Assembly (NCBI GenBank): GCA_964579865.1
Contig: CAZOIS010000001.1
Span: forward strand, 1,084 to 65,083
DNA length: 64,000 bases
DNA from: an uncultured Lentisphaeraceae bacterium
Lineage (GTDB): Bacteria; Verrucomicrobiota; Kiritimatiellia; RFP12; UBA1067
Direction of reading: 5' to 3'
Shown: positions 4,964 to 64,000 of the stretch, in pieces
Layout of the letters: every line of letters starts with the position of its first letter
Numbering within the stretch: position 1 is the first letter of the stretch
Notes under the pieces: generated by a model
What the model was told of the DNA's origin: nothing
Seen by the model: the letters and a program-made list of their open reading frames with translations, nothing else
Database searches by the model: none
Position numbers and translations under genes: made by a program

Positions 4964-5911
4964 TCACATGTCGTCCGGGACTTCGATGCGGATCGTGCGC
5001 GCCCGCATGTCCTTGAGATCCGTGGCCGCGACTTTCTTCTGGTCGAGGTCGCTGCCGTGCAGCGTGCCGGGGTCGGAGAAGAAGGGCACTTCGAAGCTCG
5101 CACCGCACGCGGGGCATTCTGAGGCGGATCCCGCCATGTCGGCCGGCGCCTCGATCTCCTGGCGGCAGTTTTTGCAGAAGAAGGAGAGCATGCGCTTGGA
5201 GGGCAGCGTCTTTTGGATGGCGGGCGCGCTGGCATTGTCAAAACCCAAGGCGGCCAGGTCGATGCGAATGGTTTGCCCGCCTTTGCTCTTCAGATCCCCT
5301 CCCGGGGTCGGGCTGGCCGCGGGGTCTGGGGCCGCATTGGGAGCGGCTGGCGCTGGAGCGGCGGCCGGTGCGGGGGCGGCGGCCGGTGCGGGGGCGGCGG
5401 CCGGTGCGGGCAAGGGCTTGCCGTGCAGCGTGCCGGGTTCGGATTCTGTGGGCACCGTGACGGACGCCCCGCAGGCGGGGCACTGGGCCTGTACGCCGGC
5501 GGCCGACAGTGGCGCCTCGATCTCCTGCCGACACTGCTTACAGCAGAACGAGACGGCGGTTGAGAAGTCTTCGTGAACCTGCGGAGGGACCTCCTTTGGG
5601 AGGACCGTGATCAGGTTGTCCGGGGTGGGTGTGACAGCGTTGCGCGCCTTTTTCAATACGCGCACCCGCAGGGTGTCGTGCTCAGCAATGAGAATCGTTT
5701 CTCCGGATTGAGGATTTTTCATCTTCCTCGCCTTGCGCTTGATAACATCCAGTCGGCAGATTCCCGGAATAGTGAATCCTTGGTCACACGCCTCCCGATA
5801 GGCGATATGCCGCAATGCTTCCAGTACAAAACGGGCTGATTTCTGCGTGATCCCCGTGCTAAAAGCCAATTCCCGAACCAAGGTCGTCTTGTTATAGGTC
5901 GTTTTTTTCAT
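4964..5911 (-). CDS. HU/IHF-fold DNA-binding domain fused to two zinc-ribbon modules
   Basis: aa 1-93 (MKKTTYNKTTLVRELA...GFTIPGICRLDVIKRKARKMKNPQSGETILIAEHDTLRVRVLKKARNAV) has the HU/IHF pattern including the R-x-x-R-N-P-x-T-G beta-arm. Two copies follow of F-C-K-x-C-R-Q-E-I-E-A-P...C-P-A-C-G-A-S...PGTLHG, separated by a (PAPAAA)n linker. Confidence 0.85.
   Translation of the reverse strand: MKKTTYNKTTLVRELAFSTGITQKSARFVLEALRHIAYREACDQGFTIPGICRLDVIKRKARKMKNPQSGETILIAEHDTLRVRVLKKARNAVTPTPDNLITVLPKEVPPQVHEDFSTAVSFCCKQCRQEIEAPLSAAGVQAQCPACGASVTVPTESEPGTLHGKPLPAPAAAPAPAAAPAPAAAPAPAAPNAAPDPAASPTPGGDLKSKGGQTIRIDLAALGFDNASAPAIQKTLPSKRMLSFFCKNCRQEIEAPADMAGSASECPACGASFEVPFFSDPGTLHGSDLDQKKVAATDLKDMRARTIRIEVPDDM
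5358..5411. repeat. 3 x 18-nt perfect/near-perfect tandem repeat (GCGGCGGCCGGTGCGGGG) encoding the (PAPAAA)n linker of the HU-zinc-ribbon protein
   Basis: Units at 5358..5375, 5376..5393 and 5394..5411. The last unit matches 17/18. Confidence 0.9.
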
Positions 5912-5949: not shown

Positions 5950-5965
5950 TGCAAGTAGTGTGCCA
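5950..5965 (-). promoter_or_regulatory. sigma54 -24/-12 promoter (TGGCAC-ACTAC-TTGCA) for the HU-zinc-ribbon gene and probably the downstream pseudopilin module
   Basis: The reverse complement of 5950..5965 matches the consensus TGGCAC-N5-TTGCA exactly. Lies about 40 nt upstream of ATG 5911. Confidence 0.65.
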
Positions 5966-24670: not shown

Positions 24671-25762
24671 ATGAAACGGAAACGTGAAGAAGGATCGGCC
24701 ATTCTGGTCGTCCTCGGAATCATCGCGGTGGTCAGCATCGCGATCGGCATGCTGGATTTTTCCGCATCGCAGCAGATGCGCTCCGCCCAGATCACGCGCG
24801 AGATGCTGAAGGCGCGGCTGATCGCGGAGTCGGGTCTGAACAAGGCCTATAATGTGGTCAAAAAAGACTTCTCTAAGGTTTCGGCGGGCTATACCGACGC
24901 GGCGTCCTTCGGCGACGGCACGTATGCGGTGAAGACGCTGCAAACGGCGGGCAACGCGAACCGTGCTCAGCTCGTGTCCGAAGGCAAGTGCGGCCTCGGC
25001 AAGGCGGTGGTGTCGGTGGATCTCGAGAACCGGCCGATCACGACTTCGGACGGCGATACGGCCGACGACTACTTCGACCTGCTGTTCGACCTGCTGGTGG
25101 GCGGAACGCTGGACCTGAAAGGGAACTTCAAGGCGAACGTTACGGATATCCACGCCAACGGCAACGCGACCATCTCGGGCAGCGCCGAAACGGACGCGAA
25201 GACCGTCTCGAGCGGCGGCACGGTGACGTGGAAGAAGCCGAACGGGACCGTCACGCTGTTGTCCAACCAGTCCTCGGTGGAGATCCTGTCCGACGCGCTG
25301 GTCGCGGCCATCAACCAGTTCATCGAATATGCGGCGGAAAACGACGCGGTCTACGGCAGCGGGTCCGACATCCCGTCGTCGCCGCCCGGCGGCGTGGCCT
25401 ACTGCACGGGCGATGCTTCGGGGTGGAGCCGAGCGGGCTCCGGCTGTTTCATTTTCGCGGGCGACGCCTCCTTCCAGGGGAATGCGGTGAACGTCTCGTC
25501 GGTGGACGGCTATCCCGCGATCATCGTCCTGGGGTCGGGCGAAGTGAAGTTCAACTCGGGCACGGAGATCCACGGCGCGATTCTCGTTCCCAACGGGAGC
25601 GTCCGGCTGAACGGCCACGCGGCCATCTACGGCGCGATCCTGGTGGGCCAGGGGATGACCGGCAACGGCACGGCGGACCTCTACGCCGGAGACGGCCAGG
25701 GGTTCAATCTGCCGCCGGATGAAACCACGACCGACAACGTGGTCGTCACGGCGTGGCACTAG
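24671..25762 (+). CDS. PilX/GspK-like minor-pilin-family protein with beta-helix-like C-terminal half
   Basis: AGGAAGG 6 nt upstream of ATG 24671 (the track starts at GTG 24665). KREEGSAILVVLGIIAVVSIAIGML N-terminus is PilX_N-like (no Glu+5). C-terminal IHGAILVPNGSVRLNGHAAIYGAILVGQGMTGNG repeats. Confidence 0.8.
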   Translation: MKRKREEGSAILVVLGIIAVVSIAIGMLDFSASQQMRSAQITREMLKARLIAESGLNKAYNVVKKDFSKVSAGYTDAASFGDGTYAVKTLQTAGNANRAQLVSEGKCGLGKAVVSVDLENRPITTSDGDTADDYFDLLFDLLVGGTLDLKGNFKANVTDIHANGNATISGSAETDAKTVSSGGTVTWKKPNGTVTLLSNQSSVEILSDALVAAINQFIEYAAENDAVYGSGSDIPSSPPGGVAYCTGDASGWSRAGSGCFIFAGDASFQGNAVNVSSVDGYPAIIVLGSGEVKFNSGTEIHGAILVPNGSVRLNGHAAIYGAILVGQGMTGNGTADLYAGDGQGFNLPPDETTTDNVVVTAWH

Positions 25763-25854
25763 TGCCAGACCCGAGGACGGCAGGACGGGTTTATTTTTAA
25801 GAGTGATCTCGCCGAACGGGTTCCGGGTACGAAGGGAGCGGACATTTTTTGAAC

Positions 25855-25948
25855 GATTAAGATTAGGATTACGATTACGAAGGTTGCGAATGAACCCTCT
25901 TGATCTTAATCTTAATCCTAATCCTAATCCTAATCCTAATCCTAATCC
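25855..25948. repeat. inverted GATTA[ACG] hexamer arrays (locus A): 4 units, 16-nt spacer, 8 complementary units incl. (CCTAAT)5
   Basis: GATTAA GATTAG GATTAC GATTAC GAAG - gttgcgaatgaaccct - CTTGAT CTTAAT CTTAAT CCTAAT x5 CC. AT-rich island in GC-rich DNA. Confidence 0.9.
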
Positions 25949-25968
25949 GGTTCACGTGGCCGGCAAGA

Positions 25969-25984
25969 GGGGGGGGGGCGGGGG
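25969..25984 (+). repeat. homopolymeric G10-C-G5 tract immediately upstream of ATG 25988
   Basis: gaGGGGGGGGGGcGGGGGaccATG: 15 of 16 bases are G, covering the Shine-Dalgarno position. Confidence 0.9.
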
Positions 25985-25987
25985 ACC

Positions 25988-27127
25988 ATGGCGTACACGA
26001 AAATTCCGGTGAACGATGCGGTTCTGCTGGTCCGGGCGCTGGGACTGCTGGTGAGCCAGGCGGGGATTTACGGCCCTTCGCACAAGGTCACGCAGAGCGC
26101 GGCGAAGACGGTGTTCGCCGAACTCGAACAGGCGGTCAGGAAGTACGGGCCGGTCGAAATCGCGCTCAAGGACAAGCGGGTGCTGCTGAACGGCTCCATC
26201 GACGGGCTGGATGTCGCTGCGGGCAAGAATCTGGTGGACCGCATGAATCTGCACAAGATCGGGGGGATGATTTTTCTTTCGCCGCCCGATCTGAACGAGT
26301 TTCTGACGTGCATCACCCTGTTCGGTACGCCGCCGGCGACCTTGGCGGCCCAAGGCGGTTTCGAAGAAGCCTTGAAAAAGGCCGGGCTGCGCAGCGTGCA
26401 GGTCGTTACGGTGGCGTATCAGCGCGTGGCCGAGCAAGAGGCTGCGATGCCGCCTGCGACGCCGCCGGCCGAGCCGTCCGAAAGGCCGGCTCCGCGCCGG
26501 TCCGCGCCGGATTCCGGCATCCTGGATCTTTCCGCCGCGTGGGAGCGCGACTTCGGGATGAAGAGTGCGGAGCCGGAGCCCCCGCCGTCCGAGACGCCGC
26601 CGCGGTCGGCGCGACAGGAACGGGCCGCGACGCTGGCGGCACTCTTGCGCGATACGGCCGCGTTGCTGGAGCAGGAAGGGGCTTTGTCCGACGAGGCGCA
26701 ACACCAGAAGGTGCTCTCGGCGATCACCCGCATCCGCGACACGCTGATCAAGTCGACCGCCGAGTCCGAGCGTCAGATCGCGTCCTTGGCGGATCAGGTG
26801 GATGACGACCGTCAGACCATCGCCAGCATCGAGTCTGCGGCCAAACGGCGGGGCATCGGGCTCAAGATTTCGCGCGCCGAACTGGTCGAGCGGTACGCCG
26901 AGCTGAACCAAGAGATCGTGCAGCCGCTCACCGTCTCCACGGGCGTGATCGATCTGCTGCATTCGGGCAAGGGCGGGCCGCTGACGGAATCGCAGCGGGA
27001 TCTGCTGAAACTCGCCTCCGACAGCGTGGAGCGCGTCAACCAGCTGGTGGCCTACATGAGCCGCATTGCGGGCCTGCCCGAGAGCTTCACGCCGGACAGC
27101 GCCATCATCTCCGATTCGTACCGGTGA
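25988..27127 (+). CDS. hypothetical signalling protein: unknown N-domain, acidic/Pro-rich linker, coiled coil and degenerate DHp (HisKA-like) C-terminus without phospho-acceptor His or ATPase domain
   Basis: ATG 25988. C-terminus ELNQEIVQPLTVSTGVIDLLHSG..LTESQRDLLKLASDSVERVNQLVAYM follows the HisKA pattern (H-E-L-R-x-P-L... L-x-x-x-Q-x-x-x-L), but the H-box His position is N/Q. Confidence 0.75.
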   Translation: MAYTKIPVNDAVLLVRALGLLVSQAGIYGPSHKVTQSAAKTVFAELEQAVRKYGPVEIALKDKRVLLNGSIDGLDVAAGKNLVDRMNLHKIGGMIFLSPPDLNEFLTCITLFGTPPATLAAQGGFEEALKKAGLRSVQVVTVAYQRVAEQEAAMPPATPPAEPSERPAPRRSAPDSGILDLSAAWERDFGMKSAEPEPPPSETPPRSARQERAATLAALLRDTAALLEQEGALSDEAQHQKVLSAITRIRDTLIKSTAESERQIASLADQVDDDRQTIASIESAAKRRGIGLKISRAELVERYAELNQEIVQPLTVSTGVIDLLHSGKGGPLTESQRDLLKLASDSVERVNQLVAYMSRIAGLPESFTPDSAIISDSYR

Positions 27128-27222
27128 ACGGGACGCCGTGAGATCGGCCCGTTTTTCGACGGTTCTCCATTTCCGTCCGCCTCTCGCCCGCGTCTCGTTC
27201 GTACGAACCTCCCCGCGATAAC

Positions 27223-27258
27223 AAAAAAACAGACGCCCCGTGACAGGGCGTCTGTTTT
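27223..27258. terminator. bidirectional rho-independent terminator between the DHp-like gene and the pilin gene
   Basis: AAAAAAA-CAGACGCCC-cgtgaca-GGGCGTCTG-TTTT: a 9-bp GC-rich stem flanked by an A-run and a T-run, between convergent stops (27127 and 27289). Confidence 0.8.
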
Positions 27259-27288
27259 CATGATACGAAAGCTGAACTTCGTCTACGC

Positions 27289-27645
27289 TCAGGGCAGAAC
27301 GTGCAAGTCAGGAGATGCGGACTTGCTGCACGTCACCGAAACGGGATCCGTCGCCGTCTCGTCCGTGATCGTGTAGCTTCCGCCGGCCGGGCACTTCGGC
27401 TCGGTCTTGAGGAAGCCTTTGCCGGTATCGTACAGCAGTGCAACCGTCGGCGCGGTGGTGTTGCCGGCCAGCTTGTACTGCTCGATCGCGCCCACGATCT
27501 GCTTCATGTTCGCGATGCAGGAGTTCTTCTGCGACTCACGGCGGGACTTGACGAAGTTCGGGATGGCGATGGCGGCCAAGATGCCGATAATCGCGACCAC
27601 GATCATGATCTCAACCAGCGTGAAACCTTTGCGATTCATCTTCAT
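27289..27645 (-). CDS. major pilin / GspG-like type IV pilin (118 aa)
   Basis: MKMNRKG|FTLVEIMIVVAIIGILAAIAIPNF is a canonical class III signal and alpha1 helix. AAGGAAG 7 nt upstream of the ATG. Has its own sigma54 box and a strong terminator. Confidence 0.9.
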   Translation of the reverse strand: MKMNRKGFTLVEIMIVVAIIGILAAIAIPNFVKSRRESQKNSCIANMKQIVGAIEQYKLAGNTTAPTVALLYDTGKGFLKTEPKCPAGGSYTITDETATDPVSVTCSKSASPDLHVLP

Positions 27646-27711
27646 GAGTTACTTCCTTCATTCGGGGTTAACCAGCAACCGGCATCCTCTGTCGGTTCGC
27701 GGTTTCTATTT

Positions 27712-27727
27712 AGCAGGCCGCGTGCCA
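27712..27727 (-). promoter_or_regulatory. sigma54 -24/-12 promoter (TGGCAC-GCGGC-CTGCT) of the major pilin gene
   Basis: The reverse complement of 27712..27727 has canonical spacing. Lies about 67 nt upstream of ATG 27645, with an SD in between. An NtrC-type activator gene is adjacent. Confidence 0.65.
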
Positions 27728-27780
27728 AGATGGGCAGGGGTTGCGGCGGCGGGTGTAATTCAGCCTGAAAAGAGCAGAAG

Positions 27781-27849
27781 GATTAAGATTAGGATTAAGA
27801 TTACGAGTAAGAAGAGAAACGTTTATTCCTAATCGTAATCTACTTGAAG
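27781..27849. repeat. inverted GATTA[ACG] hexamer arrays (locus B), upstream of the pilin sigma54 promoter
   Basis: GATTAA GATTAG GATTAA GATTAC GAGTAA GAAG - agaaacgtttatt - CCTAAT CGTAAT CTACTT GAAG. Confidence 0.9.
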
Positions 27850-27857
27850 TGATCGGT
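27842..27857 (-). promoter_or_regulatory. conserved 16-mer ACCGATCACTTCAAGT (copy 1), contains the 9-bp palindrome ACTT-S-AAGT
   Basis: The minus-strand reading of 27842..27857 is identical to 59239..59254 on the plus strand. In both copies it directly precedes GATTAC hexamers and points toward the downstream gene. Confidence 0.4.
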
Positions 27858-27872
27858 AAGCCGGACCTGCCC

Positions 27873-27896
27873 AAAAGGCGCCTGCCGCGCCTTTTT
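27873..27896 (-). terminator. rho-independent terminator after the NtrC-type activator gene
   Basis: AAAAGGCGC-ctgcc-GCGCCTTTTT. On the minus strand the stem is followed by a U-run. Lies 42 nt downstream of the stop at 27938. Confidence 0.7.
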
Positions 27897-27937
27897 CTCA
27901 AAAATGACACGCATTTTTGCAAAAACGAAAAACCGGG

Positions 27938-29326
27938 TCAGTTTGCCGGGGTGTCCGCCGACTCGTCGGAGAGCTTCCGGTAGAGGGTGGCGAGGCTGAC
28001 TTGGAGGGTCTGGGCGGCCTTTTCCTTGTCGCCGTGCGTGGAGGTGAGGATCTGGTCGAGATACTCCTTCTCCTTGAGCTTGAGAAACCCCTTGAGCGAG
28101 GTGCTCCCCATCGTCGCGGACGCGGGGTGCTCCGCCTGTAGGGCCTTGGCCTCATTGGCGCGGCTGACGATGCGCGGCGGCAGGAGGTCGGGCGAGATCG
28201 TGTCGGACTGCAGGAACGTCACGGCGTGTTTGATGGCGTTTTCCAGTTCGCGCACGTTGCCGGGCCACTTATATGCCACCAGCACGTCGGCCGCCTCTTG
28301 GGAAAGTCCGGGCTGGGCCTTGAATCCGGCGGTCTCGGAGCGGATGAAATGGCGCGCGAGGGGCAGGATGTCTTCCGGGCGGTCGCGCAGCGCGGGGATG
28401 TCGAGCGTGATGACGGCAAAGCGGTAATAGAGGTCGGCCCGGAAAGTGCCTTGGGCCACCAGTTGCTCCAGGTTGGAGTTGCTGGCCGCGATCACGCGCA
28501 CGTCGACCGGGATGTTTTTGGTGCCGCCGACGCGCCGGATTTCCTTTTCCTGCAAAACGCGCAGGAGCTTGCCCTGCAGCAGGAGCGGGAGGGAAGAGAT
28601 TTCGTCCAGAAAGAGCGTGCCGTTGTTGGCGGTTTCGAAAAGCCCCTCTTTTTCGGCCACGGCACCGGTGAAAGCGCCTTTGACGTGGCCGAACATCTCG
28701 GATTCGAGCAGGTTCTCGGGCAGCGCCGCGCAGTTCACCGCCACCCAGGGTTTTTCCTTGCGGGGGCTGGTGTTGTGGATGGTGCGGGCGATGACCTCCT
28801 TGCCGGTGCCGCTCTCGCCGTTGATGAGGACCGTGGCGGCGGTGGGGCCGACGCGCTGGATCATATCGCACACCTGCAGCATGGTGCTGTTGGTGGCGAT
28901 GAGGTTCTCGAACTGGTAGCGGAGCGGGGCGTTGGGATCCGTGGAAATGACGGCGGCGCGGCTCTTGACGTGCTCTTCCGCGCGCTTGACGGTGGCAAGC
29001 ATCTCGTCGACTTTGAACGGCTTGGTGAGATAGTCGAAGGCCCCGTTCTTCATGGCGTCGATGGCGGTTTCGACCGAGGCATAGGCCGTCAGCAGGATGA
29101 CCGGCAAATCGGGATGCAGCGTTTTGATCTCACGGAAAAGCGTCATGCCGTCCATCGGCGCCATGCGCAGGTCGGTAATGACCAGGTCGAAGGCGTCCTT
29201 CTTGATAAGATCGAGCGCGGCATTCCCGTCTTTGGCCGTCACGGTTTCGTACCCGTTGGCCTTCAGCAGGCTCTGAAGCAGGAGCAGAATGCGCGCTTCA
29301 TCATCTACGATCAGGATTTTAGACAT
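27938..29326 (-). CDS. sigma54-dependent response regulator (NtrC family, PilR-like): REC + AAA+ + Fis-type HTH
   Basis: REC (ILIVDDE...DLVITDLRMAPMDG...KP), Walker A GESGTGKEV, GAFTGA loop (GHVKGAFTGA), C-terminal HTH AAQTLQVSLATLYRKL. Confidence 0.9.
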   Translation of the reverse strand: MSKILIVDDEARILLLLQSLLKANGYETVTAKDGNAALDLIKKDAFDLVITDLRMAPMDGMTLFREIKTLHPDLPVILLTAYASVETAIDAMKNGAFDYLTKPFKVDEMLATVKRAEEHVKSRAAVISTDPNAPLRYQFENLIATNSTMLQVCDMIQRVGPTAATVLINGESGTGKEVIARTIHNTSPRKEKPWVAVNCAALPENLLESEMFGHVKGAFTGAVAEKEGLFETANNGTLFLDEISSLPLLLQGKLLRVLQEKEIRRVGGTKNIPVDVRVIAASNSNLEQLVAQGTFRADLYYRFAVITLDIPALRDRPEDILPLARHFIRSETAGFKAQPGLSQEAADVLVAYKWPGNVRELENAIKHAVTFLQSDTISPDLLPPRIVSRANEAKALQAEHPASATMGSTSLKGFLKLKEKEYLDQILTSTHGDKEKAAQTLQVSLATLYRKLSDESADTPAN

Positions 29327-32385: not shown

Positions 32386-33246
32386 ATGGCCGAGCCAGAC
32401 CCGAAAATGATTGAGGCGATCGACTTTTTTGAAAAGATGTTGCAGACGATGCCGGGCGACCGGACGAGTCTGGAATTTTTGTCGGTCGCGTATGAGCAGA
32501 CCGGTCAGCACGAGAAGCGTCGGGACTGCCTGATCCGGCTGGCGGACACGTTGCTCAGCGAGAAGGATTACGATAATGCGCAGGTCATCGCGGGCTATTT
32601 GAGCGCTCACTCGGATTATCCGCCGGCGCGGGCGGCCGTGGAGCGGGTGGCCGAGGTGATCCAAGGTCAGATCCTCCAGAGCCAGTACCACCGAGAAGTC
32701 CAAGGGCTGGGGGCCGGCGTGCCGGTGGCTCCGGGGCAGGCCGAGACCCCCATGGCCTCCGATCTGGGCTTGGAAGTCCACGCCTTGTCCCGCGCCGCGT
32801 CCACGGCGGAGATGGATCTGGTCTGGCTGTGGAAAGAGCGCGAGTTCCTGCCGAAAGAGCTGTGCATGGACGTGCTGCACATCCTGACCGATCGGCCCGT
32901 GGCGGACACGCCGATGCTGATTTCGGCGCTGGCGCTGGTGGATGAGCAGCACCCGGAGTTGACGGACAAGCTGATGGAGGCGATGCAGCGGGCGAGCGAG
33001 CTGCCGGCGATCCCGCTGGAGCTGTTCGAGGTGCCGCCGGCCTGCGTTTCGCTGCTCGCGTCGGCCTTCGTGCACATCCGGGGCGTCCTGCCGTTCGCGA
33101 TGCTGGGCAACGAGGTGCTGGTGGCGGTGTTGAATCCGCTGAATCCGGCCTTGCAGGAAGAGACGGCGGCGCGGATCGGGCGCCCTTGCCATTTCTTTCT
33201 TGTGCATCCGCGGGCGTGGCTCAAGGCGGCCGAGAAGATCATCTGA
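32386..33246 (+). CDS. stand-alone TPR-like + T2SSE_N (GspE N-terminal-like) domain protein
   Basis: AGAGGGAG upstream of ATG 32386. N-terminal helical repeats (AIDFFEKMLQTMPGDRTSLEFLSVAYEQTGQHEKRRDCLIRLADTLLSEKDYDNA). The C-terminus VSLLASAFVHIRGVLPFAMLGNEVLVAVLNPLNPALQEETAARIGRPCHFFLV fits the T2SSE_N pattern. Confidence 0.75.
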   Translation: MAEPDPKMIEAIDFFEKMLQTMPGDRTSLEFLSVAYEQTGQHEKRRDCLIRLADTLLSEKDYDNAQVIAGYLSAHSDYPPARAAVERVAEVIQGQILQSQYHREVQGLGAGVPVAPGQAETPMASDLGLEVHALSRAASTAEMDLVWLWKEREFLPKELCMDVLHILTDRPVADTPMLISALALVDEQHPELTDKLMEAMQRASELPAIPLELFEVPPACVSLLASAFVHIRGVLPFAMLGNEVLVAVLNPLNPALQEETAARIGRPCHFFLVHPRAWLKAAEKII

Positions 33247-59238: not shown

Positions 59239-59254
59239 ACCGATCACTTCAAGT
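59239..59254 (+). promoter_or_regulatory. conserved 16-mer ACCGATCACTTCAAGT (copy 2)
   Basis: Exact 16/16 identity with the locus B copy. Followed after 9 nt by GATTACGAATAGGA. Confidence 0.4.
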
Positions 59255-59262
59255 TGGGGTCA

Positions 59263-59335
59263 GGATTACGAATAGGAGCACGATTGGATTACACGAACAG
59301 AGGTGTTAGGAACACGATAGAAGATTCAGCGAAGA
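59263..59335. repeat. degenerate GATTAC-type hexamer array (locus D) in the divergent region between a beta-helix gene and the GH13 gene
   Basis: GGATTAC GAATAG GAGCAC GATTGG ATTACA CGAACA ... GTTAGG AACACG ATAGAA GATTCA. The periodicity is weaker than in loci A and B. Confidence 0.6.
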
Positions 59336-60884: not shown

Positions 60885-60964
60885 GATTACGATTACGAGT
60901 AAGATTAAGACAACAGGAATCCACGCATAATCGTCATCTTGCTCTTCATCTTACTCGGATTTAC
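60885..60964. repeat. GATTAC-type hexamer array with partial inverted partner (locus C) between convergent gene ends
   Basis: GATTAC GATTAC GAGTAA GATTAA GA ... ATCTTACTCG (complement of CGAGTAAGAT). Shares the 14-mer GATTACGAGTAAGA with locus B (27799..27812). Confidence 0.8.
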
Positions 60965-61057
60965 CTGTCCCTCCTCCGCAAGTCAAAGAGGGGCAAATTT
61001 AGATGCGTCGGCTATCCGCACTCGCAACGGGAAAAAAGCGGAACGGACCGTGACGCT

Positions 61058-64000
61058 TCAGTAGACCCAGAGGGCCATTTCCTTGATTTCGCCCCGGCCG
61101 CCGGCAAGGAGTTCGATGCGGTTGGAGGTTCCCGTGACAAGCCACGGCGTGATGTTGAGGAAAACCGTATCGCCGAGGGCGTGATGGTGGCGGCGCACGT
61201 AGCGGCCGTTGACGAGACACCCGGTGATGCCGTGGCTGGTTTCCAGCCGCAGATAAACCTGTTTTCCGCTGAGGTCTGCCGGGAGTTCGAGCGTCCGGGA
61301 CAGCAGGTTGGCGTTGAATGCGCCGGGCAGTTTCACGGGAGTCCCTGCACGCAGATAATCGTTCGAGGGGGTCCAGTCGCCCGCGAGGTCGAACACACGC
61401 CCGGGGCGACGCGTGAACGAAAGCCACGTGTTGCCGCGTATGCCGCACACCTGCCCTTCGCCCCGGATTTCCACGGCCAGCGTATGCGTTGATCCGGCTT
61501 CAAATCCCGCAGGCAAGATCAGGCCGTCCCGGCCGTCGCCCTGCGTCACCTCGCGGCCATCGAGCCAATAGCGCGTCTTGCCGGAGGCGGTCCAGGAGAA
61601 CCACGCTTTGAGCCAGAGCTCGACGTTGCCTTGGCGCCAGGCCTTCGGGACCTGAAACGTCCTGCGGAACAGCACGCGGCGCGAGGGCAGCTCTTCCGGC
61701 ACGGCCCAGCAGTCGAGCCGCCGCATCGGCCATGCGGCGTCGTCGAGACCGGGGGCCGCAAGCGGCGCGGGATCGTCTGTGCCTTGCTCGTCCAAGACCC
61801 TGTAGCGCCAGCCGCCGGTGAGATCCACGGTGTCCTGTTCGCCCGTTTCGGCGGAGGCGGCATGGGCGCTTGCGGCAGGCGCCTTCGCCTGCGCCACTTC
61901 TTCGGTTCCGCGCCACCAGTTGCGCTGAAGCGCGAACCACTCGGACGGAACGGACGCGATCCGGCCCTTCGGCGTCATGAAGATCCGGGTTTCCAGCGGC
62001 TCCAACCGGAGGCCGCGTACGGCGGGCTGACCGTCGGCGCCGGTCGTCAGCGGCGCGTCGGCATCCGCGCCGACCTCGCGGCAGAAGGCGGGCGTGAGTC
62101 CGTCGCGGAAAACAAGGCTCGTCTCGACGGCCCGGTCGGCTTCCCCGTTCCAGAGCGTCCAGATGTCGAACAGGCCGTTGTTGCTGACAGCGTGGCGGAA
62201 CTTCACGCCTGTCGCGACCGCCGGGACGCGTTTCATGCCGGCCCACACGAAAAGTTGCCGGAAGAGCTTCTGCGTGCGGTCCGGCCAGCCGTGCCAGAGC
62301 GGCGTGCGGCAGAACTTGAGCCCCATGTGGATCACGTAGCCCTTGCCGAGGGGCCGCAGCCCGATAGCGGTTGAACCGTCCTCCCAGCGCGCGAGGTCCT
62401 GACAATCCGCCGCCCGCGCTTGGAGCTTCAATCCGTTGGCCTTCACGTTTTTGAGATCCCAGTCGTCGGCCCTGAAGACCGTCTGGCTTGGCGCGAAGGA
62501 GAAGTTCCACCAGTCGGCGATCTCATAGGGTTCGTTTGCCGTCCATCGGTTGCGGCTGATGCCGGTGACGTCGTATCCGGAAAGGCGCGAAATCGGCCAG
62601 GCGTCTTTCTTTTCCGGCGTGTGGCGTCCTGTCTGGACGAAGGCCACGAAGATGCCGCCTTTGCGCACCCACGCTTCGATTTCGCCGATGAGCTTGCTGT
62701 CCATCACCGAAGTGTTGGCGCCGACGATGATGCGATAGGGGTCGGCCTTGCCGTCGGCAAAGTCGAGATCGGTCACGCCGTCGAAGTCGTATTCGCCCGT
62801 GAACTGGGCGTTGAGCGGCCAAGCGAAATACCCGGACGGGAGGTTCGTGTCAGGATCCTGACCCCACGGAAAACCGGTGAGGTTGTCGATGCGGTCGCTG
62901 AAGAGCATGGCGATCTGGGCCTTGGGCGGATGCGTCTTGCCCACCGTGTCGAGCAGCGGCCTGATCTTCTCGAAGTGGGCGCGGATGTCGTCCTGCCAGT
63001 AGATGCTGCCGACGTGGATGAAGTAGTGGATCGCTTGAACGCCCTCGGTGAAGTAGTAGCCCATCATGCGCTTGAAGCCCGTCAGATTCTCGGCGGGACC
63101 GCCCGGCTCCAGCGAGAAGGGCAGGTCGGCGCCACGCATCAGCATCGGCAGGAACTCGTTCCAGAACGCGCCCATGTGGCCGGTGTTGTGGAAGTGCGCG
63201 CCGTATTGTTCGCAGAGCTTCTTGACGCCCGCGATGGTCGAGTCCGGTGCCATGCAGATGATCGAGCGGTCAGGGTCAACGCTGCGGATGGCCGCGATCC
63301 CGCGCCGCGCGGCCTCGACCCGCGTGGCTTGCCGCCAGTCGGCGAAGTCAACCCAGCGGGCCTTTTCGCCGTCCGGCAGGTCGGGGTACTGTCGCGGCGC
63401 CTGCCGCGAGAGGTAAACGCGATAGCCCAAGAAACCCTGCGGCACGCGGAGCGCGACCGTGTTGGTCCCCGCGCGCAGGGCGCCGGTGGCCTCGAACGCG
63501 CCCCAGTGCGGCGTGGCGTGACGCGTCAGGTCCTCGCCGATCACCGTTCCGTTCAGCGACGCGACAATCCGCTCCTTGAGGTGCGCCCCCGAATTGAGGT
63601 CCCACACGTAGAGCCATACCTTGTCGCCGCGCAGCCACGCGGCGGGCACGTCGAACGCCCGGCGGAAGACCGCCGGTTTCTTTTCGAGAAACATCATCGC
63701 GTCGTTGCCGGGGGCCTGGAGCCGTGGCCACGTTGCGTCGTCGAAGGCGGCCGCCGACCATTCCGCCGCCGTACCCGGCAACGGCTCGTAACCCAAGCGC
63801 CACAGGCCGGTCAGATCCAGCGCGTCCGTGCCGTAGCCGAGGAAGGTCGCGAGATCCGGCACGCGCACGTCGTCCCAGCGCTTCAGCTCGGACGTCCGTT
63901 CCCAGCGCCGCGCCACCTGCGCGATGCGGCCGTATTTCGCTTTCAGGAAAGCGCGGAAGCTGGTATCGGCCACCGGCCCGTATTCGAGGAAAAGGTCGAA
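61058..64000 (-). CDS. large glycoside-hydrolase-like protein (beta-galactosidase/GH42-type modules plus galactose-binding-like domains), 5' end beyond the window
   Basis: The frame is open to position 64000; the track's first M at 63973 is a GTG inside FDLFLEYGPVADTSFRAFLKAKYG. AQIAMLFSD...YRIIVGANTSVMDSKLIGEIEAWVRKGGIFVAF resembles the GH42 trimerisation fold. There are several WLRGDKVWLYVW / NVELWLKAWFSW jelly-roll modules. Confidence 0.7.
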   Translation of the reverse strand, partial: FDLFLEYGPVADTSFRAFLKAKYGRIAQVARRWERTSELKRWDDVRVPDLATFLGYGTDALDLTGLWRLGYEPLPGTAAEWSAAAFDDATWPRLQAPGNDAMMFLEKKPAVFRRAFDVPAAWLRGDKVWLYVWDLNSGAHLKERIVASLNGTVIGEDLTRHATPHWGAFEATGALRAGTNTVALRVPQGFLGYRVYLSRQAPRQYPDLPDGEKARWVDFADWRQATRVEAARRGIAAIRSVDPDRSIICMAPDSTIAGVKKLCEQYGAHFHNTGHMGAFWNEFLPMLMRGADLPFSLEPGGPAENLTGFKRMMGYYFTEGVQAIHYFIHVGSIYWQDDIRAHFEKIRPLLDTVGKTHPPKAQIAMLFSDRIDNLTGFPWGQDPDTNLPSGYFAWPLNAQFTGEYDFDGVTDLDFADGKADPYRIIVGANTSVMDSKLIGEIEAWVRKGGIFVAFVQTGRHTPEKKDAWPISRLSGYDVTGISRNRWTANEPYEIADWWNFSFAPSQTVFRADDWDLKNVKANGLKLQARAADCQDLARWEDGSTAIGLRPLGKGYVIHMGLKFCRTPLWHGWPDRTQKLFRQLFVWAGMKRVPAVATGVKFRHAVSNNGLFDIWTLWNGEADRAVETSLVFRDGLTPAFCREVGADADAPLTTGADGQPAVRGLRLEPLETRIFMTPKGRIASVPSEWFALQRNWWRGTEEVAQAKAPAASAHAASAETGEQDTVDLTGGWRYRVLDEQGTDDPAPLAAPGLDDAAWPMRRLDCWAVPEELPSRRVLFRRTFQVPKAWRQGNVELWLKAWFSWTASGKTRYWLDGREVTQGDGRDGLILPAGFEAGSTHTLAVEIRGEGQVCGIRGNTWLSFTRRPGRVFDLAGDWTPSNDYLRAGTPVKLPGAFNANLLSRTLELPADLSGKQVYLRLETSHGITGCLVNGRYVRRHHHALGDTVFLNITPWLVTGTSNRIELLAGGRGEIKEMALWVY

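Follow-up and report, generated by a model that had tools for sequence, protein, structure and literature searches.

What kind of element is formed by short AT-rich hexamer arrays that face each other between genes in otherwise GC-rich DNA? The question is raised by a stretch of 64,000 nucleotides from an uncultured Lentisphaeraceae bacterium (Kiritimatiellia; contig CAZOIS010000001.1; hereafter, the window), in which arrays of the hexamer GATTAN occur at four sites, referred to as A to D. The reading that we prefer, and hold with moderate confidence, is that these arrays are copies of a dispersed non-coding hairpin repeat resembling the repetitive extragenic palindromic (REP) and short tandemly repeated repetitive (STRR) sequences, which owes its evolution to slippage, is frequently transcribed from positions between cistrons, and probably has a generic function, if any. 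The core of the family, inverted GATTAN arrays around a loop of ~20 nt, is widespread in the Planctomycetes-Verrucomicrobia-Chlamydiae (PVC) group and occurs in a few other phyla. The arrays are almost wholly confined to intergenic DNA, no gene travels with them, and they are neither canonical terminators nor conserved regulatory sites. No description of GATTAN repeat strings, or of such a family in PVC bacteria, was found in the literature searched. The four sites are built as follows (L numbers designate related loci).

25843..25854, minus strand: site A flank GTTCAAAAAATG; the same GTTCAAA flank is found in L120/L292 and L250/L302
25855..25878, plus strand: site A 5' arm, GATTAA GATTAG GATTAC GATTAC
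25879..25898, plus strand: site A loop of 20 nt, GAAGGTTGCGAATGAACCCT, which holds a small internal stem
25899..25948, plus strand: site A 3' arm, CTTGAT CTTAAT CTTAAT (CCTAAT)5 CC; eight units (25899-25946) versus four in the 5' arm
25949..25959, minus strand: site A flank CACGTGAACCG; the L120 version is CACTTGAACCG; resembles CACTTCAAGT of sites B and C
27781..27812, plus strand: site B 5' arm, GATTAA GATTAG GATTAA GATTAC GAGTAA GA (five units plus GA)
27824..27840, plus strand: site B short complementary 3' arm, TATTC C TAATC G TAATC
27842..27857, plus strand: site B flanking module ACTTGAAGTGATCGGT, identical to that of site C
59239..59254, minus strand: site C flanking module ACTTGAAGTGATCGGT, identical to that of site B
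59264..59293, plus strand: site C decayed array, GATTAC GAATAG GAGCAC GATTGG ATTACA, lacking a complementary arm and flanked by two divergent promoter-like sites
60885..60910, plus strand: site D 5' arm, GATTAC GATTAC GAGTAA GATTAA GA (four units plus GA)
60927..60957, plus strand: site D 3' arm of variant units, ATAATC GTCATC TTGCTC TTCATC TTACTCG
60994..61010, plus strand: site D flanking module CAAATTTAGATGCGTCG; L312 and L265/L297 (the latter two upstream of mnmG) also have it beside the same type of hairpin

The sites exceed by far what base composition would produce. At one mismatch or fewer, GATTANGATTA has 22 matches in the window versus 0.51 ± 0.70 in shuffled sequences, and none of 100 shuffles reaches 22. 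The strong clusters are sites A, B, and D only; a weak fifth match at 32560-32576 lies inside a gene and is probably due to chance. Tandem Repeats Finder (TRF) reports a period of 6 with 4.7-7.7 copies at the same three sites, the maximum being at site A (25903-25948, 7.7 copies, 97% matches). All four sites lie in intergenic DNA, which makes up 7.6% of the window (p ~3e-5). The initial annotation had described them as AT-rich islands in GC-rich DNA, and the GC fraction of 0.36 at sites A and B, against ~0.63 in their surroundings, bears this out. Its order of units at site A, ending in eight complementary units with a perfect (CCTAAT)5, is likewise as found; however, the spacer there is 20 nt (25879-25898) rather than 16, and the exact 14-mer GATTACGAGTAAGA, assigned to sites B and C, is shared by the second and fourth sites (27799-27812 and 60891-60904, i.e., B and D). 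The inverted configuration ascribed to all four sites is seen at A, B, and D but not at C, which is degenerate, with two exact GATTA units and a folding z-score near 0. Site C is counted as a member of the family because it has the 16-mer ACTTGAAGTGATCGGT together with GATTACGA in common with site B. Moreover, the starts of sites A (minus), B (minus), and C (plus) all read CACTT[CG]AA[GC].

The occurrence of the family in other organisms was assessed in a scan of genomes (one genome per species, with four consecutive units as the pattern), which gave at least 119 loci, and in a scan of metagenomes for the arrangement seen in the window, which gave at least 120; the counts given here for these sets refer to the matches listed. 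PVC bacteria account for 82 of the 119 genome loci, as counted from record titles, and include Verrucomicrobiota (with Akkermansia), Kiritimatiellia, Lentisphaerota, and Planctomycetota; the remaining hosts are Desulfobacterota, Ignavibacteriota, and others. The median GC fraction of the genome loci is 0.59, and arrays reach 13-18 units. Single metagenome-assembled genomes (MAGs) have 4-7 copies among the first 119 matches, and the 64-kb window has four. In the genomes, 48 of 133 arrays form inverted pairs, with a strong polarity: 46 pairs read (NTAATC)n-loop-(GATTAN)n and only 2 have the opposite order, which is that of the window. Since at least 120 metagenome loci have the window's arrangement, both orientations are common in nature. 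In contrast, 122 of the 123 arrays in viral contigs (median GC 0.33) are single, and the sole pair (1/123) has the window's orientation; as viral arrays are nearly all unpaired, inverted pairing is not a property of the unit as such. Other arrays of period 6-8 in the same listed loci are paired in only 23 of 168 cases (mirror control, 19).

The initial annotation proposed that intergenic bias be checked in related genomes, and the bias is pronounced: intergenic DNA holds 45 of the 46 genome pairs and 60 of the 64 metagenome pairs. The flanking genes are co-directional in 22, convergent in 8, and divergent in 7 of 37 cases in the genome set; the corresponding numbers in the metagenome set are 40, 5, and 8 (n = 53). 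In the latter, the element lies a median of 20 nt from the upstream stop codon and 27.5 nt from the downstream start codon, and being thus tucked between the stop and the next start of co-directional genes, it would be part of operon transcripts. No recurrent neighbouring gene emerged when 730 predicted proteins from the 119 listed loci were clustered. A MoxR operon was considered as a linked partner, since the same operon, MoxR-DUF58 (Bat-type), has a GATTAN hairpin immediately upstream in a Verrucomicrobia MAG (L048, 2100-2184) and in a Lentisphaeraceae MAG (L064, 3557-3629); the two hairpins have opposite orientations, the operon lies beside two arrays only, and the association looks coincidental. 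A different AT-rich repeat, ...CACCCACAATTAGTCACATGATTTT GATTATGATTACGATTAC..., which resembles a eukaryote-type transposon, repeatedly matched the metagenome pattern; the loci with this element (L261, L266, L280, L284, L285, L290, L298, L301, L303, L310, L311, and L315; WLWD01/WLWI01 contigs, GC ~0.38) were left out of the statistics.

That the copies belong together is indicated by their surroundings: flanking modules are common to the copies of one lineage, which are therefore dispersed repeat units. In particular, site D aligns over ~170 nt, as a composite that includes module CAAATTTAGATGCGTCG, with L265, L297, and L312, whose gene contexts are unrelated, and site A-type flanks (TATAACTTCAAG ... 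GTTCAAA) recur in L250, L302, and L356. One Desulfobacteraceae MAG has seven copies with common flanks that exchange small modules, and in the Akkermansia-like loci L028, L092, L116, and L117, the hairpin is nested in an outer inverted repeat of 17-30 nt. No flank common to different lineages was found among the loci compared.

The copies also turn over rapidly. The initial annotation allowed that they might be strain-specific microsatellite noise lacking positional conservation; arrays are in fact kept at all four sites in relatives with 97-98% protein identity, with unit changes, insertion, and rearrangement, but at greater distance site B and mostly site A are lost. The relatives were identified through homologues, as an exact look-up of the window's PilR gave no match. 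In L120, in which the PilR-type activator is 98% identical, site B is nearly identical, with the same unit count, and site A has different unit numbers and a 57-bp insertion inside the array. In L246 (amylase 97% identical), site D has unit substitutions, and site C is rearranged, with GATTA units still present. Where PilR identity falls to 84-90% (L122-L126), the site B array is missing in all five genomes and site A is kept in L122 only. Some of the spacers of these relatives are occupied by other short tandem repeats. The insertion that splits the hexamer array of L120 (8372-8430) comprises a GC-rich stem and the palindrome TAACTTGAAGTTA, and recalls the small dispersed repeats that insert into tandem heptamer arrays of cyanobacteria.

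Related genomes are generally rich in long-unit simple sequence repeats (SSRs). TRF found many other arrays of period 7-8 with diverse units in the related loci, 96 being intergenic and 25 genic. The intergenic DNA of L069 (an Acidobacteriota MAG), L068, L098, L122, and L123 is dense with varied arrays of period 7 and 8, for example (ATTCACCG)22, (CGGGAGA)21, (TCGTCAC)26, and (TTAAACG)4, the last directly before a start codon.

The anatomy of the family bears on whether a helix between the arms is under selection. The median loop is 20-22 nt (interquartile range, 15-35 nt), the unit numbers of the two arms are weakly correlated (rho 0.38), and the sixth base N has the same preference on both arms, A, then C, G, and T. 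On the GATTA strand, the unit that follows the last exact one begins with GA in ~90% of arrays, its remaining positions being random, whereas the 5' side begins with GA in only ~50%; this makes the arrays polar and phased, as (GATTAN)nGA. Variant units such as GAGTAA, GAGCAG, and GATCAA are found mostly at the fuzzy end. The predicted hairpins have stabilities of -23 to -40 kcal/mol and z-scores down to -5.6; they are significant at site A (z -3.1 and -5.6) and at site D (z -3.4 and -2.5), where CGAGTAAGAT pairs with ATCTTACTCG in a perfect 10-bp stem, and marginal at site B (z -1.6 and -2.8). This hairpin potential is real, but it arises from the invariant cores and not from compensatory evolution. 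In the inner register, the sixth bases of the two arms are complementary in 23 of 81 cases versus 23.05 expected, and in the best register in 36 of 81 versus 32.2 ± 3.8. For 81 metagenome elements in the window's orientation, the count is 164 versus 172.8 ± 7.2 under a null that re-chooses the register; an apparent excess (167 versus 113) was an artefact of selecting the best register and disappeared with the proper null. Compensated variants at positions 3-4 are marginally enriched (11 versus 7.2 ± 1.9), possibly as both arms decay near the loop. For five homologous copies of the D type, the covariation term of RNAalifold is a penalty (+1.44), and sense and antisense strands fold equally well, the sense strand being favoured in 13 of 22 co-directional cases (p = 0.41). 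Rfam returned nothing relevant for the window at the gathering score, for 25500-28100 at E <= 10, or for 18 related loci. The initial annotation's suggestion of structured RNA elements, understood as a conserved RNA family, is not supported by Rfam matches, sixth-base complementarity, covariation, or strand bias.

Sites A and B flank a regulator and pilin pair of a type IV pilus locus that comprises a secretin, ATPases, PilC, a PilR-type activator, and a pilin gene (27289-27645, minus); the sigma-54 activator gene (27938-29326, minus) has its best matches in Kiritimatiellia. An alpha-amylase gene is located between sites C and D. Site A has co-directional plus-strand genes on either side, site B lies between the activator gene, which has a canonical terminator of its own, and the pilin promoter, site C between two divergent promoter-like sites, and site D between convergent genes, and the sites therefore have no common relation to transcription. 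Canonical terminators are present separately from the arrays, at 27225-27259 and, as GGCGCGGCAGGCGCCTTTT, near 27872-27890. A good sigma-54 promoter, TGGCACGCGGCCTGC (27713-27727, minus), lies upstream of the pilin gene. This promoter and an upstream block, TGTC...ATCACTTTTGAGAA, are conserved in six genomes, whereas the site B array is present in the window and L120 only; in L122-L126, the promoter, a hairpin in the 5' untranslated region, and the upstream block are all conserved. Judging from this comparison, site B appears simply to fill a variable spacer between a conserved activator-binding region and the sigma-54 pilin promoter. Directly behind the PilR-type gene, the block TTTTTCGTTTTTGCAAAAATGCGTGTCATTTTTGAGAA (27896-27937) probably serves as the binding site of the activator; it is conserved across six related genomes.

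Several further features lie near the sites or elsewhere in the window. Downstream of site A, a homopolymeric tract, G10-C-G5 (25969-25984), directly precedes the ATG at 25988 of a 379-aa HisKA-like gene; in L120, a close relative, the corresponding stretch is just G8, so that the tract differs in length between strains, and its length could affect translation initiation. In the module beside site D (61003-61065, plus), an ATG after GAGGGG opens a 20-codon open reading frame, MRRLSALATGKKAERTVTLQ, which is probably not coding, since its ATG, although in the mnmG frame in L265, lies upstream of where that gene is likely to start. Finally, a perfect sigma-54 consensus, TGGCACACTACTTGC (5951-5965, minus), is found ~40 nt upstream of a gene for a fusion of HU with a zinc ribbon (4964-5911, minus), which contains an 18-bp tandem repeat at 5343-5410.

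Several established functions were considered for the arrays and set aside. As sigma-70 promoters in repeat phase, they would offer TAAGAT or TACGAT as a -10 element, but the spacers to TTAAGA-type -35 elements are 13 or 19 nt, and a promoter scan was silent. They are not intrinsic terminators, as the stems are AT-rich, no U-tract follows, and a terminator scan reports none of the arrays; the initial annotation had dismissed simple terminator hairpins on account of the unequal arms (4 versus 8 units at A), and this view stands. A PilR/sigma-54 enhancer or an IHF site does not apply, since the conserved block is TGTC...ATCACTTTTGAGAA and not the array. On inspection, Shine-Dalgarno/anti-Shine-Dalgarno, CsrA (GGA), and Hfq (ARN) motifs fit only N = G or half of the triplets, and in a DnaA-trio-like reading only alternate triplets fit and the sites are too many. 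CRISPR arrays have repeats of 23-50 nt with unique spacers; here, TRF gives a period of 6 nt without spacers, and their earlier dismissal was sound.

The statement that no feature class explains the arrays was too strong, as long-unit intergenic SSRs have been described previously (PMC4692102, PMC4679880). Heptamers are over-represented in many bacteria as repeats without known function; GGGAATC in Xanthomonas and GGGGAYT in Nostoc are ~90% intergenic, lie nearer the upstream open reading frame, and are transcribed, strain-variable, and sometimes inverted (PMC4692102). GATTAN arrays show the features of this class, in which units of 5-11 bp are arranged head-to-tail in at least 3-4 copies, with intergenic bias, unrelated neighbours, and variation between relatives, and share with the STRR, Xanthomonas, and Nostoc repeats the tandem units of 6-8 nt and the genome-wide, intergenic, strain-variable distribution beside unrelated genes, nearer the upstream open reading frame and in some cases with inverted pairing (PMC4692102). 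They differ from these in being AT-rich hexamers and not G-rich heptamers, with no quadruplex potential, in having inverted pairing as the rule and not the exception, and in their PVC host range; positional conservation is lower than reported for Xanthomonas. TAACTGA repeats of Beggiatoaceae, Cyanobacteria, and Bacteroidetes are also short, AT-rich, tandem, intergenic, and patchy across phyla, and an RNA-binding protein has been proposed for them; however, they are direct only (one inverted in 170), lie a few nucleotides upstream of starts, and have 2-6 copies (PMC4679880).

Among the options offered by the initial annotation, an element of the REP type or of its bacterial interspersed mosaic element (BIME) derivatives is best supported, the arrays being dispersed, intergenic, hairpin-forming, and rapidly turned over, with lineage-specific flanks; neither the GTAG head nor a linked REP-associated tyrosine transposase (RAYT) was found. 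REP, BIME, and REPIN sequences of Enterobacteria and Pseudomonas are comparable short extragenic hairpin repeats with many strain-variable copies, which lie between genes that are co-directional or convergent, frequently close behind a stop codon, are transcribed in operons, and combine with other small modules into mosaics. Their stems, however, consist of unique, GC-rich palindromes (20-40 nt) that carry a conserved GTAG head and are mobilised by RAYTs, whereas GATTAN elements have AT-rich tandem hexamer arms with variable unit numbers and mismatched sixth bases, no RAYT was seen, and in the genome set the spaces between divergent genes are not avoided (7 of 37). As the initial annotation had stated, no transposase is nearby: a scan of 29 window proteins detected no transposase domain, the Y1 type included, while a RAYT may be encoded in other parts of the genome, and no arrays flank a transposase within 8-14 kb around each match. 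Transposable elements of the miniature inverted-repeat type (MITEs) are also small, non-autonomous palindromic units in intergenic DNA with lineage-specific conserved ends, and the outer inverted repeat (17-30 nt) of some Akkermansia-like loci recalls them. In contrast to MITEs, no target-site duplication, which agrees with the absence noted earlier at sites A-D, and no related full-length insertion sequence were found, unit numbers vary, and the ends are fuzzy, decaying into variant units, in place of defined termini. Fur-box GATAAT arrays, the unit of which is similar to GATTAA, and the heptad arrays of the omega repressor are alike in mode only, namely contiguous units of 6-7 bp, both direct and inverted, that are cooperatively coated by a small dimer; these operators occur at few promoters and have no inter-arm loop, whereas GATTAN arrays occur at many sites in all intergenic contexts with loops of 11-80 nt.

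According to the dispersed-repeat reading, copies would spread as units, via an unlinked enzyme acting in trans or by recombination, and each arm would then grow, shrink, and homogenise independently through replication slippage. Such independent slippage would account for the unequal arms (4 versus 8 at A) and the unpaired sixth base. Selection would tolerate copies only where they are harmless. When transcribed, a copy is expected to fold into a long AU-rich hairpin of 5-bp helices with a mismatch at about half to two-thirds of the sixth positions, and any effect is likely to be generic and REP-like, for example by impeding 3' exonucleases, by offering RNases a processing site, or by obstructing ribosomes or polymerase. 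Gene-specific regulation by the arrays is unlikely.

Several points weigh against this reading. The analysis identified neither a mobilising enzyme nor terminal inverted repeats or target-site duplications, and the relatives compared include no clean pair of filled and empty sites, so that spread as units is suggested by the shared flanks; transcription of the arrays is suggested by their spacing to genes. The recurrence of the GATTA core across phyla in two opposite arrangements, taken together with the phased ends (~90% GA) and the 46:2 polarity in genomes, is something that purely neutral slippage does not predict, and hints at recognition by a host factor; and inverted pairing, being far commoner for GATTAN (48/133) than for other units, suggests something specific. 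These observations lead to the main, though in our view improbable, alternative that the arrays are binding platforms on which a nucleoid-associated or repressor-like protein reads GATTA (or the GA phase) every 6 bp and polymerises along both arms. A core that is fixed while the sixth base is free and unpaired between the arms, array ends phased as (GATTAN)nGA, the same N preference on both arms, a core identical in both arrangements and across phyla, pairing specific to the GATTAN unit, and the presence of sites in all intergenic contexts, even untranscribed ones such as that of C, all agree with such a protein, which explains the fixed core, free sixth base, phased ends, and orientation bias better than a dispersed repeat does. 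However, no candidate for the protein emerged, loops differ in length (interquartile range, 15-35 nt) and arm lengths are weakly correlated, single sites are lost between relatives at a speed unusual for functional operators, a 6-bp period sets successive sites on nearly opposite faces of the helix, and the coexistence of other period 7-8 units in the same genomes favours a sequence-independent origin. A broader version, which we consider speculative and likewise improbable, would have a PVC-wide host factor, acting on DNA or RNA, read GA-phased GATTA hexamers, the inverted arrays being genome-wide landing pads at which unit changes tune adjacent genes, such as the pilin gene at site B; a nucleoid-organising or RNA-decay-targeting system specific to the PVC superphylum would be an example. 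If a host factor does read the units, this would explain the cross-phylum core, phased ends, free sixth base, and orientation bias, none of which is predicted by neutral slippage.

It is rather unlikely that the hairpins are mRNA elements selected at their loci, whether to stabilise the message between cistrons, to be processed by RNase III or RNase E, or, as AU-rich stretches, to enhance or occlude translation. The E. coli REP elements do act in this way, the predicted GATTAN hairpins are stable, and, among the matches listed, elements in the window's orientation follow the stop codon at 1-32 nt in 31 of 40 co-directional cases and, again in 31 of 40, precede the start codon by 4-46 nt. Yet the helices show neither covariation nor a folding advantage of the sense strand, Rfam has no match, the stems lack a following U-tract and canonical terminators are separate, sites B and C lie outside likely transcripts, and positional conservation is poor. 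Far less probable is that site B is a spacing or flexibility module between PilR-type sites and the sigma-54 pilin promoter, in which 6-bp changes (approximately half a helical turn) phase-vary pilin. Its position between the conserved upstream region and TGGCACGCGGCCTGC would suit this role, whole-unit changes do occur between strains at sites A and D, and at Neisseria nadA, a repeat tract upstream of the promoter acts as such a switch. Nevertheless, the unit count of site B is the same in the window and L120, relatives without any array at this position simply have shorter spacers, and most members of the family occur without a promoter of this kind. Chance, or neutral microsatellite noise at unrelated sites, has a negligible probability: the arrays do vary fast and are not conserved beyond close relatives, but the shuffle statistics (22 matches versus 0.5 expected) and the flanks common with loci of other genomes refute this reading in practice, as do the exact 14-mer and 16-mer common to different sites, the strong PVC enrichment, and the absence of inverted pairing, apart from the single pair mentioned, from the AT-rich viral matches.

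The dispersed-repeat reading has consequences for how such genomes are annotated, as recognition of the family prevents AT-rich islands from being read as promoters, terminators, small RNAs, or horizontally acquired DNA, and the arrays are likely hotspots of strain-level variation and of assembly error. Long-unit intergenic repeats such as STRR, GGGAATC, and TAACTGA have been known for decades without explanation. The GATTAN family adds a widespread case in the poorly studied PVC superphylum, home of the gut bacterium Akkermansia, and its sharp regularities, namely a fixed core with a free sixth base, phased ends, inverted pairing, and a bias in orientation, make the ideas of a selfish repeat, a protein platform, and an mRNA element testable.

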